Below, piece by piece: positions 1,777 through 46,427 of a DNA stretch of 64,000 bases; position 1 is the stretch's first letter; each line of letters begins with the position of its first letter. The translations under genes were made by a program, and so were the position numbers. Under the pieces are notes generated by a model. That model was not told where the DNA came from. It saw only the letters and a list, made by a program, of their open reading frames with translations, and made no database searches. Source of the DNA: Verrucomicrobiota bacterium. Lineage in GTDB: Bacteria > Verrucomicrobiota > Verrucomicrobiia > Limisphaerales > UBA11358. Location of the stretch: positions 6,758 through 70,757 of the forward strand of contig JBEKMW010000009.1 in assembly GCA_049523455.1 (NCBI GenBank). The letters are read 5' to 3'.

Positions 1777-1840
1777 AGAAGGGGTCGGTCAATAGTAATA
1801 TAGTATTTTAGTATTGACGATCGGGAATTAATTTTGCAGG

Positions 1841-2785
1841 ATGACAACCATGGCGCGGAAGCTGCGAGTGGAGTATGGCGGGGCGATTTATCATGTGATC
1901 AACCGCGGGGACCGGCGCGAACCCATCTTCAAGGATGACGAGGACCGGCGCCGTTTTCTGGCGACCCTGGGCGAAGCCTGTGCCAAAACCGACTGGCAGG
2001 TTCATGCGTTCTGCTTGATGCCCAACCATTTTCATTTAGTGGTCGAGACGCCCCAAGCGAACCTGGCGGCGGGGATGAAATGGTTTCTGGGGACCTACAC
2101 CAGCCGATTCAACCGGCGGCACAAACTGTTTGGCCATTTGTTCAGTGGTCGTTACAAGGCATTGATTGTGGATGGCAGTGGCAGCGGTTATCTGAAGACC
2201 GTCTGTGATTATGTGCATTTGAACCCGGTGCGAGCCCGGTTGCTCAAGGCGGAACAATCGCTGGGGGAGTATCGCTGGAGCAGTTGGCCCGAATACCTAA
2301 ACCGTCCGGGGCGGCGGCCGGCATGGTTGCGCGTGGACCGGTTGCTGGGTGAATATCGCGTGCCACGGGACAGTGCGGCGGGTCGGCGGCATCTGGCCGA
2401 GGCGTTGGAACAGCGCCGTGGGGCGGAAGCTGGCGACGCGTTCAAAGCGATCCGGCGAGGCTGGTTTTTCGGCAGCCCGGAGTTGAAGCAGGAATTGCTG
2501 GCGGCAATGTCGGAGCGGACGGGCCGATGGCATTATGGGGAGGCGGTGCAGGAGTCGTCGGTGGCCAGGGCGGAGCGTATGGTCCGGCAAGAAATGGGCC
2601 GGCGGAAATGGGATGAAGCGACCTTGGCTGCGCGGCGCAAAGGCGATGCCCAGAAGGTGGCCATGGCGCGGCGATTGCGGCGCGAGACGACGGTGACAGT
2701 GGCTTGGATAGCGGAACGGCTACGGATGGGAACCCCGACCTACCTGGCGCATTTGCTGTACTGGAACCGACGCAATGAAAAATAG
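1841..2785 (+). CDS. REP-associated tyrosine transposase (RAYT, IS200/Y1-like) with a C-terminal DnaA-type HTH tail
   Basis: N-terminal YHVINRG...HAFCLMPNHFHLVVETP (HuH motif) ...GHLFSGRYKA (catalytic Tyr region) ...YVHLNPVRA. C-terminus RRLRRETTVTVAWIAERLRMGT. Confidence 0.85.
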   Translation: MTTMARKLRVEYGGAIYHVINRGDRREPIFKDDEDRRRFLATLGEACAKTDWQVHAFCLMPNHFHLVVETPQANLAAGMKWFLGTYTSRFNRRHKLFGHLFSGRYKALIVDGSGSGYLKTVCDYVHLNPVRARLLKAEQSLGEYRWSSWPEYLNRPGRRPAWLRVDRLLGEYRVPRDSAAGRRHLAEALEQRRGAEAGDAFKAIRRGWFFGSPELKQELLAAMSERTGRWHYGEAVQESSVARAERMVRQEMGRRKWDEATLAARRKGDAQKVAMARRLRRETTVTVAWIAERLRMGTPTYLAHLLYWNRRNEK

Positions 2786-11033: not shown

Positions 11034-11254
11034 GACACTTTGATTTCGTAAGGCGTCTACCGCACGATCATGCCGATGCTATGCCTGCCCCGCTCCTCCC
11101 GCAACTGCTTTTTGCAGAAGGACGATTCCATTTCAGCCATCCGCGGTTCAAATGACGGGCCTTTGCTCATTTTCGAGCCGTCCCAAAGCCGTCCCAAAGC
11201 CGTCCCAAGCCGTACCAGACGCGCTGCCTGGATTTATCCCTCTCATGAACCGGG

Positions 11255-11289
<35 letters not shown>

Positions 11290-11462
11290 CAATGAAAGAG
11301 CAGGATTCCGGTCGTCCCCAGGAACTCCCGTCAGGTTCAGGGGTTCAATGCGCGATGTTATCGGGGAAATCTCTCCCCGCCCAACGGGGAGAGGTTCTTT
11401 CCGAATTGAGTGCAAAGTCGAAATTTCTTTCCGTCGCCGCGCCTTTGCGGGAAATTCCTCGC

Positions 11463-12251
11463 GTGGAACGGCTGGGTAAAAACCATGGAGGCTATCGCGG
11501 CGAGACCATTGACATCCGCGCCGTGCTGCGCGACATCACAGACGCCGCGCAAACGCACGGCTGGACGGCGGAAATTTTCCACTGCACCAGAGAATTCGAC
11601 CTGGCCGCGCTCCATCGCCACCCGACGACGGGCCATCCGCCGCCGCCGGCCCGCATTTATATTTCAACCGGCATCCACGGTGATGAACCGGCCGGCCCCC
11701 TTGCCGCCTTGCGGTTGCTGCACGACAACCGCTGGCCCGACAACGCGGAATTGTGGCTCTGTCCCTGCCTGAACCCCGCCGGCTTCACCCGGAACACCCG
11801 CGAAAATGCCGAAGGCATTGACCTCAACCGCGGCTATCGCAACCCCGTGACGCCGGAAATTCTGGCGCACATTGCCTGGTTGCAACGGCAGCCGGCCTTC
11901 GACCTCTACCTCCTGCTCCACGAGGACTGGGAGACGCACGGCTTTTATCTCTACGAACAGAATCCCGACGGCCGTCCGTCATTGGCGGAAAAAATGATTG
12001 AGGGCATTGAAAAGGTCTGTCCCATTGAGCAGTCCGAAATGATTGAAGGGCGTGAAGCCAAAGGCGGCATCATCCGCCCGAACCTCGACCCCCGCGCGCG
12101 CCCGCAATGGGCTGAGGCGTTTTATCTGATCATGCGCAAGTCCCGCCTGGGTTACACCCTGGAAGCTCCGTCTGATTTCCCTCTGTCCGTCCGCGTGAAT
12201 GCCCTCGTCACCGCCGTCCACGCCGCCTTGAAAAACTTTCGCTCCCTTTGA
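11463..12251 (+). CDS. M14-family zinc carboxypeptidase / MpaA-AstE-like amidase
   Basis: STGIHGDEPAG, CLNPAGF, GIDLNRGY, LLHEDWE. Start uncertain: the ORF is open from 11070, but 11070-11460 is repeat DNA, so GTG 11463 was chosen. Confidence 0.75.
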   Translation: MERLGKNHGGYRGETIDIRAVLRDITDAAQTHGWTAEIFHCTREFDLAALHRHPTTGHPPPPARIYISTGIHGDEPAGPLAALRLLHDNRWPDNAELWLCPCLNPAGFTRNTRENAEGIDLNRGYRNPVTPEILAHIAWLQRQPAFDLYLLLHEDWETHGFYLYEQNPDGRPSLAEKMIEGIEKVCPIEQSEMIEGREAKGGIIRPNLDPRARPQWAEAFYLIMRKSRLGYTLEAPSDFPLSVRVNALVTAVHAALKNFRSL

Positions 12252-12268
12252 ACCCGAAAAGCAAAGTT

Positions 12269-12412
12269 GGGGAGCACGCCCGCCCCGGGCGTTGCTGCAT
12301 ATGCCTCGTATCCAGCCGTGGGCACGTAGAGTATCGCCGGTAGGAAATTTTCTGTACCTCCGAGGTTTTCCGCGAGGCGCGGAGAACGGCGTCCGAGGCG
12401 GGCGCGCTCCCC
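12269..12412. repeat. 144-bp intergenic element with 16-bp terminal inverted repeats
   Basis: GGGGAGCACGCCCGCC (12269-12284) against GGCGGGCGCGCTCCCC (12397-12412), 1 mismatch. The left arm recurs inside purL at 45359-45381. Confidence 0.8.
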
Positions 12413-12699
12413 ATGCTAACTTCAGTTTTGGGGTTGAACGTTCGGCGTTCGAGGTTCAATGTTTTCGTCTTCCTGCTGCCGGTTTAACTTCGACGAAAAT
12501 ATAACTTGAACGCGTAACGACGGGGTGCTTCACTCGGAAAGCAGGTGCCGGGACAATTTAAGGCGAATGTGCTAATGCACTTTTGGCGGGCCGGGGTGCA
12601 CGTGCGGCAGCTTGTTGTTCCCTCAAGGCCTTCAGGGCCGGGAAGGGCACTGGTCTCGAAGGGGGGGATGGTTTTCAATTCAGGCCGGACGCACACTTT

Positions 12700-34315: not shown

Positions 34316-36844
<2,529 letters not shown>

Positions 36845-37039
36845 TTAAAAATACTCGTGTTCCGAGCGTTTAATTTCAGACAGAAAATTATAGGAAAATT
36901 GTTGTTTTCAGACAATGCTAAAACTGCAGATTTTTTGGGTGAAAACACTATTAGTTGTGGCCTATTATCAGCAAACGCCAAAATATTGTAGGGGCGCGGA
37001 CTGGCGAAATTTCCACGATTTTATGTGGAAGTGAACGGG

Positions 37040-42808: not shown

Positions 42809-43945
42809 ATGAGTGATCCATCTTTCACACAACTATTTCGCCGAAGCCGGTATTCCCGGATTGGCCCGTCAGGAGACGATGAGCGGGATCAGGACCGCAA
42901 GGAAGTATTCGCCGTGGCAGCGGTAGGGTTTGCCTTAAAGCATGATGCCCAATTCCAAAAGAAATTCCTTGAAAAATTTGCCGGTATTGATGAAGATCCC
43001 GAAGATTACAAGCCAAGCCTCCAGCCGGCCGATTGCATAGACTTAAGGCTGGAAAACCCCCAAAAAAAGATTTTAGTCGCGGTTGAATTCAAAGTTGGCG
43101 CAGGACTGGCGGAACATCAAAATCCTTGGCTCGATTTCGACGAACGAAAGGCCAATCTCAGAAAACCCGATGACAAAGGTTTGCCGTTCTGGTGCAAAGC
43201 CAAAAATGGTTATGGCTTTCAATTCAGCAACGATTTTAAGGATTTTCCCACCGTCCATTATGTGATCGTTCAACAAAAAGAGCACGGAGATGTGCGTGAT
43301 GAGGAGCCAATCGAGCAACCTGGTAAAACTTTTCATTTGAAAAGGCGGAATTGGGAATGCCTTTTGCCACCGAATGCGGGGTTGGAGAGAGATTTAGTTA
43401 ATTCGTTGGGCGAACTTGGAATTACTGAACTCGTGGACTGGACTATGAAAACCATGAAAATAGACCCCGAATCCATTGAAGGTTGCTTCAAAGGATTGGA
43501 AGTAGGAGAAAAGCTCATCAAAATCCTCCTCTGGATTTCTAAGAAATTGAGGCTAACAGTCAAATTAGACGACTTTGTGACGGAAATATCGGGAGATTCG
43601 CGTTATTTAGGCATTGGTTTCTCAAATAAGGTTACGGCACGTCTATCGAAAGAACGATCTGCATATATCGGTAAGCGTGATTATGGCGCTGGATGGTTCG
43701 GCTATTCTTCGGAACAACAAGGAAAATTCCAACCCGAAGTGTGGTTTTATTGTAATGATAATATGAAGCCGAGGCTATTAAATATACTGAAAACTGAATT
43801 CAGTGATTCTGTAGAATTTCCTGAACCCCCGAAGGATGGGTGTGAAAACTACAATATTCGAATTCGCCGTTCGCAGACTTCGCGAAAGCCGGATGGGGCC
43901 TGGTTTTATGAAGTCTTAGGAATCAATGAATTTTCAAATGACTGA
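42809..43945 (+). CDS. Uncharacterised low-GC protein with a putative PD-(D/E)xK nuclease core
   Basis: 378 aa. ...[31 protein letters not shown]... fits D-x(n)-E-x-K on consecutive beta strands. Hand counts: line 43741-43800 has 17/60 G+C and line 43201-43260 has 22/60. Confidence 0.7.
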
Positions 43946-46427
43946 ACCCAAAGTTACACCGGAACTGGTTGCCAAACACAACCTGACGCCCGAGGAACAC
44001 CGGAAAATTCTCGAAGTGCTGGGCCGCGAGCCGAGCTATACCGAATTGGGCATCTTCTCGGTGATGTGGAGCGAACATTGCTGTTACAAGAGCACCCGCC
44101 CGCTGCTCAAAACCTTTCCGACCAAGTCCAAGAAAATCCTCGTCGGCGCCGGGGAAGAGAACGCCGGCATTATTGACATTGGCGACGGCCTGGCCATTGC
44201 GTTCAAAGTGGAGTCGCACAACCATCCGAGCGCGGTCGAGCCGTTCCAGGGGGCGGCCACGGGCGTCGGCGGCATCGTGCGGGATATTTTTACGATGGGA
44301 GCCAGGCCCATTTGCTCGGTAAATTCCTTGCGATTTGGACCGATCACCGGGAATTCGGAACGCGGAGCGCGGAGTGCGGAATCAAAAAGTGGGAAGGAAG
44401 CTGCGTTGAAGAACAACCGCCGCCTCTTTGCGGGCGTCGTCGCTGGCATTGCGCATTATGGTAATTGCTTTGGCATTCCCACCATCGCCGGCGAGGTTTA
44501 TTTCGACCCATCCTACGAGGGCAATCCGCTGGTCAACGCTTTTTGCCTGGGCGTCCTCCGCCACGAGCAAATCGCGCGCGGCGCCGCCAAAGGCATCGGC
44601 AATCCGGTCTTTTACGTGGGCCCGGCCACGGGCCGCGACGGTCTGGCCGGCGCCGCATTCGCCTCGCAGGATTTGACCGAGGAATCGGCCGAGCAGCAGC
44701 GCGGGGCGGTGCAGGTGGGCGATCCCTTCATGGAAAAACTCGTGTGCGAAGCCTGCCTGGAATTGCTGGCCACCGGCGCGGTGGCGGGCATTCAGGACAT
44801 GGGCGCGGCGGGCCTGACCTGTTCCACGTGCGAGACGGCGGCGCGCGCCGGCACGGGCATCGAAATCGAATTGGACAAGGTGCCGCAACGCGCGCCGAAC
44901 ATGAGCAGCTACGAAATCATGCTCAGCGAATCGCAGGAGCGGATGCTCATCATCGTTAACCGCGGCCGGGAAGCGGAGGTCAAACGCATTTTCGACAAAT
45001 GGGATTTGCCTTGGGCGGAAATCGGTTTCGTCACCGACACCGGCCGCATGGTGGTCAAACACCACGGCCAGGTGGTGGCGGATATTCCGGCCAGGAAAAT
45101 CGCCGATGAGTCGCCGGTTTGCCAGCGGGAGGCGGCCGAGCCGGAGTACCTGAAGGACGTGCGGGCCTTTCGGCTGGATGGAATTGCCGATTGCCAATCA
45201 CCGGTTGACGATTTGAAGAAGTTGCTGGCGTGGCCGACCATCGCGTCGAAAAACTGGGTGTACCGCCAATACGACCACATGGTGCGGGATGGTTCGGTGG
45301 TTTGTCCCGGCAGCGACGCGGCCGTGTTGCGCATCAAGGCGGACAGTTTGCCGGATCTGGGGAGCGCGCCCGCCCCGGGCGCCGCGGTTGACGCCCCGTC
45401 AACCGCAAAAGCCGGCGACATGTCAGCCGCCAGCGACGCACTTTCAGTTCCCGAGAAATTTATCGCCCTGACCTCGGATGGCAACGGCGCTTACGTCTAT
45501 CTCGATCCCTACGAAGGGGCGAAGGTCGTCATGGCTGAAGCGTGCCGCAACCTGGCGTGCTCCGGCGCCGTGCCATTGGGGACGACGGACAATCTCAACA
45601 TGCCCAGCCCCCTCAAGCCGGAACTGTTCTGGCAAATCAAGGAATCGGTGCGCGGCTTGGCCGACGCGTGCCGGGCCTTCAACGCGCCCGTCACCGGCGG
45701 CAATTGCTCGCTCTACAACCAGAGCCCCAACGGCCCGATTGACCCGACGCCCACCGTCGTGGTGGTGGGGTTGGTCGAAAAACCGGAACACGTGACGACG
45801 CAGTGGTTCAAGGACGAAGGCGACGCGATCATTTTGCTGGGTGAAGCGGTGGATGCGAGCGATCCGCTGTCCGGCCTGGGCGGTTCCGCTTATCTGCAAG
45901 TGATCCATGGCCAAAAGACCGGCAGACCGCCGCGTTGTGATCTCGAGCAGGCCAAAACCCTGCACACGACGCTGCTGGGCTTGATCCATTCCGGACTGGT
46001 AAAAAGCGCGCATGATTGCAGTGAAGGCGGTTTGGCGGTTTGCCTGGCCGAAAGCTGCATTTCACAACTCGCCGCCCGCGAAACGCCCCGCCTCATCGGG
46101 GCCACGGTGGATTTGAGCCTCGTAGGACAGGCTTCCAGCCTGTCTCAAACGAAAAAAGAAGATGGAGACAGGCAGGATGCCCGTCCTCCGGCGCGCTTGG
46201 ATGGCCTGCTCTTTGGCGAAGCCCAGTCGCGCGTGGTTATCACCTGTCACCCGCTGAATGCGGTGAAAGTGGTCGAACGCGCGAAGTTGATGGGTGTGCC
46301 TGCGGCACAAATCGGCAAAGTGGGCGGTGACCAGTTGACCATAAAAACCGCCGCCGGCGAAATCAGCGCGCCAGTGGCCGAATTGCACGACGTCTGGTGG
46401 AACGCCATCGCGCGGGCGATGGCCTGA
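43926..46427 (+). CDS. purL: Phosphoribosylformylglycinamidine synthase subunit PurL
   Basis: 833 aa. [52 protein letters not shown]. The start may be ATG 43938. Confidence 0.96.
44356..44383. repeat. Four CGGANNG heptamers inside purL
   Basis: cggaacg cggagcg cggagtg cggaatc, within a segment of about 19 aa ([19 protein letters not shown]) that is absent from B. subtilis PurL as I recall it. Confidence 0.8.
45339..45455. repeat. 117-bp (39-codon) insertion in purL carrying one arm of the 12269-12412 element
   Basis: GGGGAGCGCGCCCGCCCCGGGCG (45359-45381) against GGGGAGCACGCCCGCCCCGGGCG (12269-12291). Confidence 0.8.
46122..46190. repeat. In-frame copy, inside purL, of the same element family as gcvP 20043-20156
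   Basis: GTAGGACAGGCTTCCAGCCTGTCT...AAGATGGAGACAGGCAGGATGCCCGTCCTCCG against GTAGGACAGGCGTCCCGCCTGTCC...AAGATGGAGACAGGCGCGACCCGTCCTTCG. Confidence 0.85.

Follow-up and report, generated by a model that had tools for sequence, protein, structure and literature searches.

A segment of 33 codons within purL, an essential gene of purine synthesis, is in our judgement a translated copy of a non-autonomous, hairpin-built DNA cassette, a reading held with good confidence. [quoted passage not shown] The gene was analysed within a stretch of 64 000 nucleotides (the window; contig JBEKMW010000009.1, positions 6758-70 757, assembly GCA_049523455.1) from a soil Verrucomicrobium of the order Limisphaerales, the assembly being a fragmented metagenome-assembled genome (MAG) of 4.86 Mb in 219 contigs with 58.8% GC. 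On comparison with related loci, the cassette reads as several REP-like stem-loops joined in a mosaic, with GGGGAGC...GCTCCCC as its inverted ends.

The segment had been noticed in a sequence-only reading, which described it as 39 extra codons. The excess length was borne out, as the loop (site 2) has 39 residues here against a median of 3 in 86 diverse PurLs of 38-51% identity (3 residues in 70 of the 86), and the Thermus PurL structure 3VIU aligns to residues 15-474 and 514-711 of the query with just 3 chain residues between them. The boundaries had to be redrawn, since PurL alignments showed that the initial ADSLP and the downstream EK are kept across the order, so that ADSLP and the final E are host sequence and the variable cassette is reduced to 33 codons (Table 1). 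The 105-bp cassette of locus L107 could be aligned over all 99 bp of the purL cassette, with a single 6-nt gap that deletes the loop of hairpin 2; the left ~63 bp were well conserved and the right third was degenerate. By this alignment, the left part, comprising the tag, the arm hairpin, hairpin 1 and the spacer, can be taken as a clear member of the family, while the right third is probably a decayed arm, its end sharing ~59% identity (hand count) with the right arm of L107; it is the weakest part of the cassette. The flank that follows, GAGAAATTTAT, is identical in the sister locus L106. The 33 residues are of low complexity (G, S, A, P, T and D) with no Pfam domain, and neither splicing motifs nor a size compatible with self-removal, as would mark an intein or an intron, were found.

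Table 1. Coordinates in the window of the purL cassette and its modules, of the host gene and its other filled loops, and of the intergenic element
Feature	Position	Strand	Remarks
Cassette proper	45354..45452	+	33 codons; full-length alignment with the 105-bp cassette of L107
Terminal tag GGGGAGC	45359..45365	+	kept at the outer end of all family arms
Arm hairpin (GCGCCCG stem, CCC loop, CGGGCGC stem)	45366..45382	+	core of the 23-nt word; covariation
Hairpin 1 (GCGGTTGACG-CCC-CGTCAACCGC)	45384..45406	+	perfect 10-bp inverted repeat; encodes AVDAPSTA; marker of the short-cassette subfamily
Spacer AAAAGCC and degenerate hairpin 2 (GGCGACATGTCAGCC)	45407..45428	+	from alignment to L107 and comparison with L035/L036
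Right arm, decayed (putative)	45429..45452	+	ends ...GTTCCC; sister PurL ...GGTCCCC
purL (FGAM synthase subunit II)	43926..46427	+	833 aa, intact open reading frame
Segment of 39 codons, sequence-only reading	45339..45455	+	residues 472-510; ADSLP and final E are conserved host sequence
purL loop site 1	44346..44411	+	residues 141-162; heptamers CGGAACG CGGAGCG CGGAGTG CGGAATC (CGGANNG type)
purL loop site 3	46121..46190	+	inverted doublet of GTAG-tagged REPs, CGTAGGACAGGCTTCCAGCCTGTCTC / GAGACAGGCAGGATGCCCGTCCTCCG; 26 nt, 85% complementary
Intergenic element of the longer family	12253..12433		arms 12269-12291 and 12390-12412, two inner hairpins

The left arm of the cassette contains a 23-nt word, GGGGAGCGCGCCCGCCCCGGGCG (45359-45381), which recurs with one mismatch in an intergenic element of the window (12269-12291, same strand), exactly as had been reported, and again in the second arm of that element (12390-12412, opposite strand, two mismatches). 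These three were the only matches in the window at up to three mismatches, against a mean of 0.01 in dinucleotide-preserving shuffles. At the same threshold the whole assembly held 35 matches at 27 loci, and the reversed pattern, used as a control, gave no match in any of 31 genomes. The low count in shuffles and the empty control thus indicate a real repeat family, and the concern raised at the time, that the match might be a common GC-rich word, falls away. Each arm consists of GGGGAGC followed by a 7-bp hairpin, in which compensatory double changes were seen in four of the seven pairs (26 distinct versions). Among 26 family members, 97.3% of the hairpin cells were paired as compared with 80.1% in shuffles, and the covariation score of 0.512 was reached by none of 500 shuffles (0.213 when shuffled; slid controls up to 0.128). 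Twelve copies could be aligned as an element of ~150 bp, which runs from GGGGAGCGCGCCCGCCYCGGGCG through a hairpin GTTTTCCGCG-CCCY-CGCGGAAAAC, a spacer and a second hairpin GCTGGATACG-AGGG-CGTATCCAGC to the inverted arm; a further inverted repeat of 16 nt on the outside, CCCGAAAACCGAAGTT, is frequent and adjoins the arms 13 times, and element sizes in the family range from 100 to 190 bp. Copy number of the arm is patchy among relatives (about 33-35 here, 41 in G022, 7 in G009 and 0-5 in the others of the 31 genomes). The motif CCGGAWCT was considered as a target site, as it precedes the arm in both purL and the aconitase gene; since it is lacking in the other host genes, it is not put forward as such.

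Beyond the arm, the purL cassette follows the plan of a second, shorter subfamily. Its hairpin 1 (GCGGTTGACGCCYCGTCAACCGC) was found at 69 loci in other species-representative genomes, nearly all of them MAGs of Verrucomicrobiota, and the combination of arm and hairpin 1 in 5 of 300 other Limisphaerales genomes. The common order of modules at those loci, over ~100 bp or more, is GGGGAGC, the arm hairpin, hairpin 1, further hairpins (for example GACGACG-RGG-CGTCGTC) and a closing ...GCTCCCC, with arm stems that covary among loci (GCGCCCG, GCACGCG, GCACCCG, GCACAGCCG and others). In other species the subfamily is present in purL itself, at site 1 (L036, L043, L071 and L097) as well as at site 2 (L061, L069 and L103). 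The purL cassette is best read as a decayed copy of a shorter mosaic cassette of ~100 bp. Hairpin 1 was also met under labels from outside the phylum, with 11 copies at ten loci of a MAG labelled Candidatus Sulfotelmatobacter (Acidobacteriota; L055, L058, L060, L068, L074, L086, L090, L094, L095 and L098) and one copy each in bins that bear the names Bifidobacterium, Bathyarchaeota and Proteobacteria. On the contig with the Bifidobacterium label lies a purL of the Limisphaerales type whose site 2 is filled, and these off-phylum copies are likely to stem from mislabelled or contaminated bins. Cassettes with GGGGAGC often have arrays of 7-nt repeats directly next to them (AAATCGA, CTCCGAA or CGTGAAA, at L033, L035, L040, L065, L070 and others, and on contigs C74 and C30 of the present genome), which suggests a joint spread or a joint origin of the two kinds of repeat.

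The cassettes show a marked preference for one reading frame when they lie within genes. Seven of the 27 arm loci are genic, all in Pfam-confirmed hosts, namely purL, the genes of a class II ribonucleotide reductase (nrdJ) and ValRS (valS), and those encoding GltB, GlnE, aconitase and a Proton_antipo_M antiporter-like protein; the arm lies between the catalytic and anticodon domains of ValRS, in the central domain of GltB, between the two halves of GlnE and in the C-terminal domain of aconitase. It is read as GSAPA.GA in six of the seven, GlnE being the exception. Hairpin 1 is close to its own reverse complement, and encodes AVDA(S/P)STA or, when inverted, AVD(E/G)ASTA. At 30 of 70 loci it lies deep within a gene, at least 100 residues from both ends of a long open reading frame (ORF), and all 30 use the frame that gives these peptides, 15 in each orientation. 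The alternative frame, RRLTPRQP, was used at none of the 30 although it is free of stops at all 70 loci, and were the two open frames equally acceptable, a 30:0 split would have a probability of ~1e-9 by our calculation. We take this split as indirect evidence for translation of the cassettes, with selection on the peptide acting as a filter. Pfam-verified hosts of hairpin 1 include AlaRS, DnaG, MetH, UbiD, xanthine dehydrogenase-type enzymes (XDH) and Eco57I-type methylases among others, in which the cassettes usually lie between domains. In an open-frame test the elements had 3-6 stop-free frames against ~2 in shuffles and ~3 in GC-matched genomic windows, a modest difference that is not decisive.

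Other genes of this genome carry comparable inserts. The ValRS ORF (contig C28, L110) contains, besides its GGGGAGC arm, at least three more in-frame repeat-like segments, namely VGQASRLPQ...DRRDACPT, a stretch beginning SERRDSEGRVTRVP and heptamer-like DNA read as AECGVRSAE, so that multiple colonisation of one gene is not peculiar to purL. An ORF resembling the translational GTPase BipA/TypA (contig C74) has a long low-complexity insert, GSAGASPAVSGASP...GSAGAAPAAS..., which is possibly built from a related cassette of the GGGAGCGCAGG type.

The history of the loop was followed in 124 PurL orthologues of 75-92% identity (768-909 residues), in which site 2 fell into nine cassette classes as assigned by simple patterns. 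The GGGGAGC type accounted for 34 sequences, the GTAG-tagged REP types EVGQASS...DRQDACP and EVGRAELPLGQDAQQRVPTVP for 23 and 21, three smaller families for 11 in all, a non-repeat stretch of 16 residues (VMSAEL...) for 4 and short versions of 7-10 residues for 20, with 11 others. A FastTree phylogeny built from 783 loop-free columns of these closely related sequences requires at least 53 changes of class, and at least 22 between the GGGGAGC type and all other classes, these counts being parsimony minima on an imperfect tree; sister pairs at 99-100% local support differ in class. The nearest PurL (P0005, 92% identical, support 99) has a shorter GGGGAGC...GGTCCCC cassette within the same flanks, GATCTG|...|GAGAAATTTAT, and the slot was thus occupied already in the common ancestor and later remodelled. 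On this comparison, the cassette at site 2 is taken to be inherited and remodelled, and not a fresh capture from a neighbouring locus. The sequence-only reading had it that a second, unrelated repeat family was captured in frame by purL. Repeat-derived DNA is indeed read in frame here, but 'unrelated' and 'captured' are too strong, because cassettes of the GGGGAGC type fill the slot in 34 of the 124 orthologues and also in the sister PurL. Its further statement that purL carries three separate repeat-derived expansions stands, these being a heptamer array (site 1), the GGGGAGC cassette (site 2) and a GTAG-REP doublet (site 3).

An alternative history for the same loop is a recent insertion, confined to the lineage of this species, of a 72-bp truncated half-element (arm, hairpin 1 and tail) into an ancestral loop of 9 residues (E-L/S-S-N-G-K-S-V-P). 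The genus representatives G001, G013 and G014 do have 9-residue loops that end in SVP or TP, and the residues that follow the 72 bp here (SDALSVP) are loosely like SNGKSVP. However, P0005 and the surrounding clade all carry DLGSA... cassettes within identical flanks, two-armed cassettes of 35 residues align with the whole of the 33 residues, and the nucleotide similarity of the supposed remnant to the 9-residue loop (~48%, hand count) is no better than chance. Given the cassettes between matching flanks in the sister PurL and its clade, a fresh, species-specific insertion was downgraded and is considered unlikely.

At closer range, the same protein is present, exactly or nearly so, in five records that were assembled independently. 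One strain, whose purL is 93.8% identical at the nucleotide level, keeps the cassette with four substitutions, of which one is synonymous and three are non-synonymous, whereas the other 796 codons of the pair differ by 103 synonymous and 32 non-synonymous changes; within the 66 nt of the arm and hairpin 1 there is a single change between the two strains. Though the numbers are small, this suggests that the constraint on the protein is relaxed over the cassette, and that some force conserves the hairpin DNA. Upstream of purL the same strain differs in gene content (L114 1-200 compared with window 42809-43945), in that a HicB-like gene ends 8 nt before purL and the 378-residue nuclease-like gene found here (42809-43945) is absent.

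The host protein appears to accommodate its inserts. Pfam domains FGAR-AT_linker, AIRS (two) and AIRS_C (two) were recognised, and an AlphaFold2 model built on an alignment of 91 diverse PurLs had a mean predicted local distance difference test (pLDDT) score of 92.6 and a predicted template modelling (TM) score of 0.93. The pLDDT dips only at the three repeat-filled loops, at residues 141-150 (68), 481-510 (55, 53 and 68) and 731-750 (65 and 59), and Foldseek superposed the model on 3VIU with a target-normalised TM score of 0.96 and a root-mean-square deviation of 2.7 Å. Sites 1 and 3 are likewise expanded, to 22 and 25 residues, against a median of 3 for each among the 86 diverse PurLs; site 3 starts with GTAGGACAGGC and is read as VGQASSLSQ...DRQDARPP. 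In the model, the cassette is without secondary structure (pLDDT 53-68) and lies between strands 466-470 and 511-518, filling a beta-hairpin turn where the second AIRS half of PurL begins. The fold is thus predicted to be intact despite three filled loops, and the most likely picture is that of a normally functioning PurL from which a disordered segment protrudes.

It could be envisaged that the loop is instead an adaptive gain for PurL, serving for instance as a flexible linker, as the place where PurQ or PurS docks, or as an mRNA hairpin that paces translation between the halves of the enzyme. Strains of 94% identity retain the segment and show few synonymous changes in its hairpins, the loop is filled in most Limisphaerales PurLs, and the hairpin structure is conserved through covariation. 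Such a role is nevertheless quite improbable, given that close relatives alternate, with at least 53 changes, between nine unrelated cassette classes and short versions of 7-9 residues, that non-synonymous changes exceed synonymous ones within the cassette, that the same cassettes occur in many unrelated proteins, and that the region is disordered by prediction.

The sequence-only reading had derived the purL insert from the intergenic element of the same contig, which it placed at 12269-12412 between terminal inverted repeats. The inverted arms exist, forming a 24-nt inverted repeat with 88% complementarity, but the element is longer (Table 1), with an outer inverted repeat of 16 nt (CCCGAAAAGCAAAGTT / AACTTCAGTTTTGGGG), and begins 2 nt past the stop codon of the ORF at 11070-12251. 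A scan of the element against Rfam matched no family, and scans for terminators and promoters around it found nothing, with no terminator-like tail. What it shares with purL is the 23-nt terminal module, at one or two mismatches, and nothing after it. Identity ends with the arm, and the remaining 70 nt or more of the insert are unmatched in that element or elsewhere in the genome; after the arm purL has GCGGTTGACG...CGTCAACCGC, where the ~150-bp family has TTTTCCGCG... and GCTGGATACG..., and no homology was found between 45383-45452 and 12292-12389. As the arm is present at 27 loci, any copy of it, or none, could have been the source, and, the insert itself apart, the closest match is to the aconitase copy (94.6% over 37 nt). 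Moreover, the order of modules in purL is that of the other, shorter subfamily known from other genomes, and a GGGGAGC cassette is already in place at this point of the sister PurL. Direct copying or capture from this element is thus very improbable. A chance GC-rich match or an assembly chimera at the repeat, for which one could cite the fragmented, 58.8% GC assembly, has a practically negligible chance of being correct in view of the shuffles and reversed controls, of purL sequence on both flanks with the frame kept, and of the same cassette in five independent assemblies.

The interpretation of the purL segment as a translated copy of a mobile, hairpin-built cassette has several observations to contend with. 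Translation is deduced only from the integrity of ORFs and from frame bias. The right third of the cassette resembles a family arm only weakly. No second copy of the hairpin-1 subfamily, which might have served as donor, was found in this genome. Among the 12 aligned copies of the longer element no flanking direct repeats indicative of target-site duplication were seen, and no GGGGAGC arms flank Y1 transposase genes within 3 kb of the five PF01797 matches. The short loops of the three genus representatives, and the scarcity of synonymous changes in the cassette (one observed against ~4 expected, on small numbers), point in the same direction; the latter hints at a constraint on DNA or RNA, which could mean function rather than pure selfishness. 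All of these weigh against our interpretation to some degree.

On this interpretation, the cassette would be neutral or slightly deleterious selfish DNA, and it may be tolerated because it lies in a surface loop and has one frame that yields small polar residues (G, S, A, P, T and D). Cassettes would be mobilised as structured DNA by an enzyme that acts in trans, and the copies that survive would be those which landed in tolerant loops in the small-residue frame. Once filled, a loop could be remodelled rapidly, the likely routes being nested insertion, deletion between hairpins and template switching within quasi-palindromes, the last of which would also explain perfect stems with differing sequences; related strains may in addition exchange loop content by homologous recombination in the highly conserved flanks of purL.

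In-frame palindromic insertions are known from Rickettsia as RPEs (Ogata et al. 2000, as summarised in PMC10969869, a 2024 MITE review, and in PMC3733652). In so far as those summaries describe them, RPEs share with the present cassettes short palindromic repeats that lie in frame in unrelated housekeeping genes, a conserved peptide, a location in surface regions and additional intergenic copies. The likeness is a functional one, consisting in a dispersed family both intergenic and intragenic, a preferred frame and a loop compatible with the fold; phylum, GC content and sequence family are different, and no membership in RPE-1 to RPE-10 by sequence is claimed. In contrast to RPEs as there summarised, each of the cassettes studied here is a mosaic, with exchangeable hairpins between GGGGAGC/GCTCCCC ends, the peptide encoded by hairpin 1 is nearly unaffected by orientation, and one loop switches cassette family repeatedly among close relatives.

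Intragenic REPs have been reported from a number of bacteria, of which Opitutus terrae, itself a Verrucomicrobium, and Rickettsia conorii have the most (Di Nocera et al. 2013, PMC3733652). As with the GTAG- and CGTC-tagged REPs of Opitutus described there, the host belongs to the Verrucomicrobia, REP singletons or dimers encode 20-30 residues within genes that include a tRNA synthetase, and several insertions per gene are possible; purL site 3 is a GTAG-tagged REP doublet. The site 2 cassette, unlike GTAG REPs, does not end in GTAG, its arms beginning with NNGGGGAGC after variable bases. As for the CGTC tag, hairpin 1 does contain GACG-CCY-CGTC, at its loop and not at its outer end.

Similarity also extends to REP doublets forming hairpins (REPINs) and bacterial interspersed mosaic elements (BIMEs), which are mobilised by REP-associated tyrosine transposases (RAYTs; Y1 family, IS200/IS605-like), in the inverted doublets, the mosaics of short hairpins, the covariation of stems and the position directly downstream of genes. 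This genome also contains a RAYT-like gene with the CAGGCAGGGATGCCTG REP at its flanks. Unlike REPINs, no flanked Y1 gene was found for the GGGGAGC family, and no REPtron (a RAYT gene within its REPs) was found for the site 2 cassette; the inverted repeats that flank the Y1_Tnp-like genes belong to other families. The RAYT-like gene (PF01797, 31 bits; contig C19, ~35950-37000) lies between CAGGCAGGGATGCCTG palindromes on both sides, a REPtron-like setting, and this REP family, with 18 copies in the genome, is related to the doublet at purL site 3. A further ORF of 317 residues in the window (1832-2782) combines a Y1 transposase domain at its N-terminus (PF01797, 1886-2218, 59 bits) with a long C-terminal extension, and has a paralogue on contig C35 and a fragment on C52; no GGGGAGC arms were seen within 3 kb of it. 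Bacterial MITEs (Correia/NEMIS, ERIC and Nezha among others) are matched in a size of 100-190 bp, terminal inverted repeats, the lack of own coding capacity and patchy copy number. In contrast to MITEs, no target-site duplication was seen and no parent insertion sequence with matching ends was found, in a search that was not exhaustive.

The finding is thus a further case of 'selfish DNA inside genes', as known from Rickettsia and Opitutus. The GGGGAGC-bounded mosaic architecture, the orientation-independent coding of hairpin 1 and the measured turnover of a single loop may go beyond the cases described so far. A bolder proposal, to which we give a small though real chance, is that Limisphaerales carry undescribed, coding-competent mosaic elements, made of interchangeable hairpins between GGGGAGC and GCTCCCC and giving nearly the same peptide in either orientation, which a structure-guided enzyme inserts, excises and swaps at set positions within essential enzymes. 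Among these slots would be the loops of PurL, all three of them, as well as sites in AlaRS, DnaG and MetH, and if this were true the content of the loops would turn over faster than species diverge. In a stronger form of the same hypothesis, the hairpins would be kept for an action on mRNA or DNA, such as pausing translation between domains.

PurL lengths of 768-909 residues are real and are not errors of gene calling. As the loops break alignments and inflate divergence, annotators and phylogeneticists should mask them. The filled loops are also candidate permissive sites for engineered insertions in PurL-type enzymes. With at least nine cassette families in the turn of one beta-hairpin across 124 orthologues, PurL amounts to a natural experiment on the loops and frames that are tolerated for random peptide insertions. 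Colonisation of core metabolic enzymes by in-frame hairpin repeats is thus no curiosity of Rickettsia, but is pervasive in an order of free-living soil bacteria.

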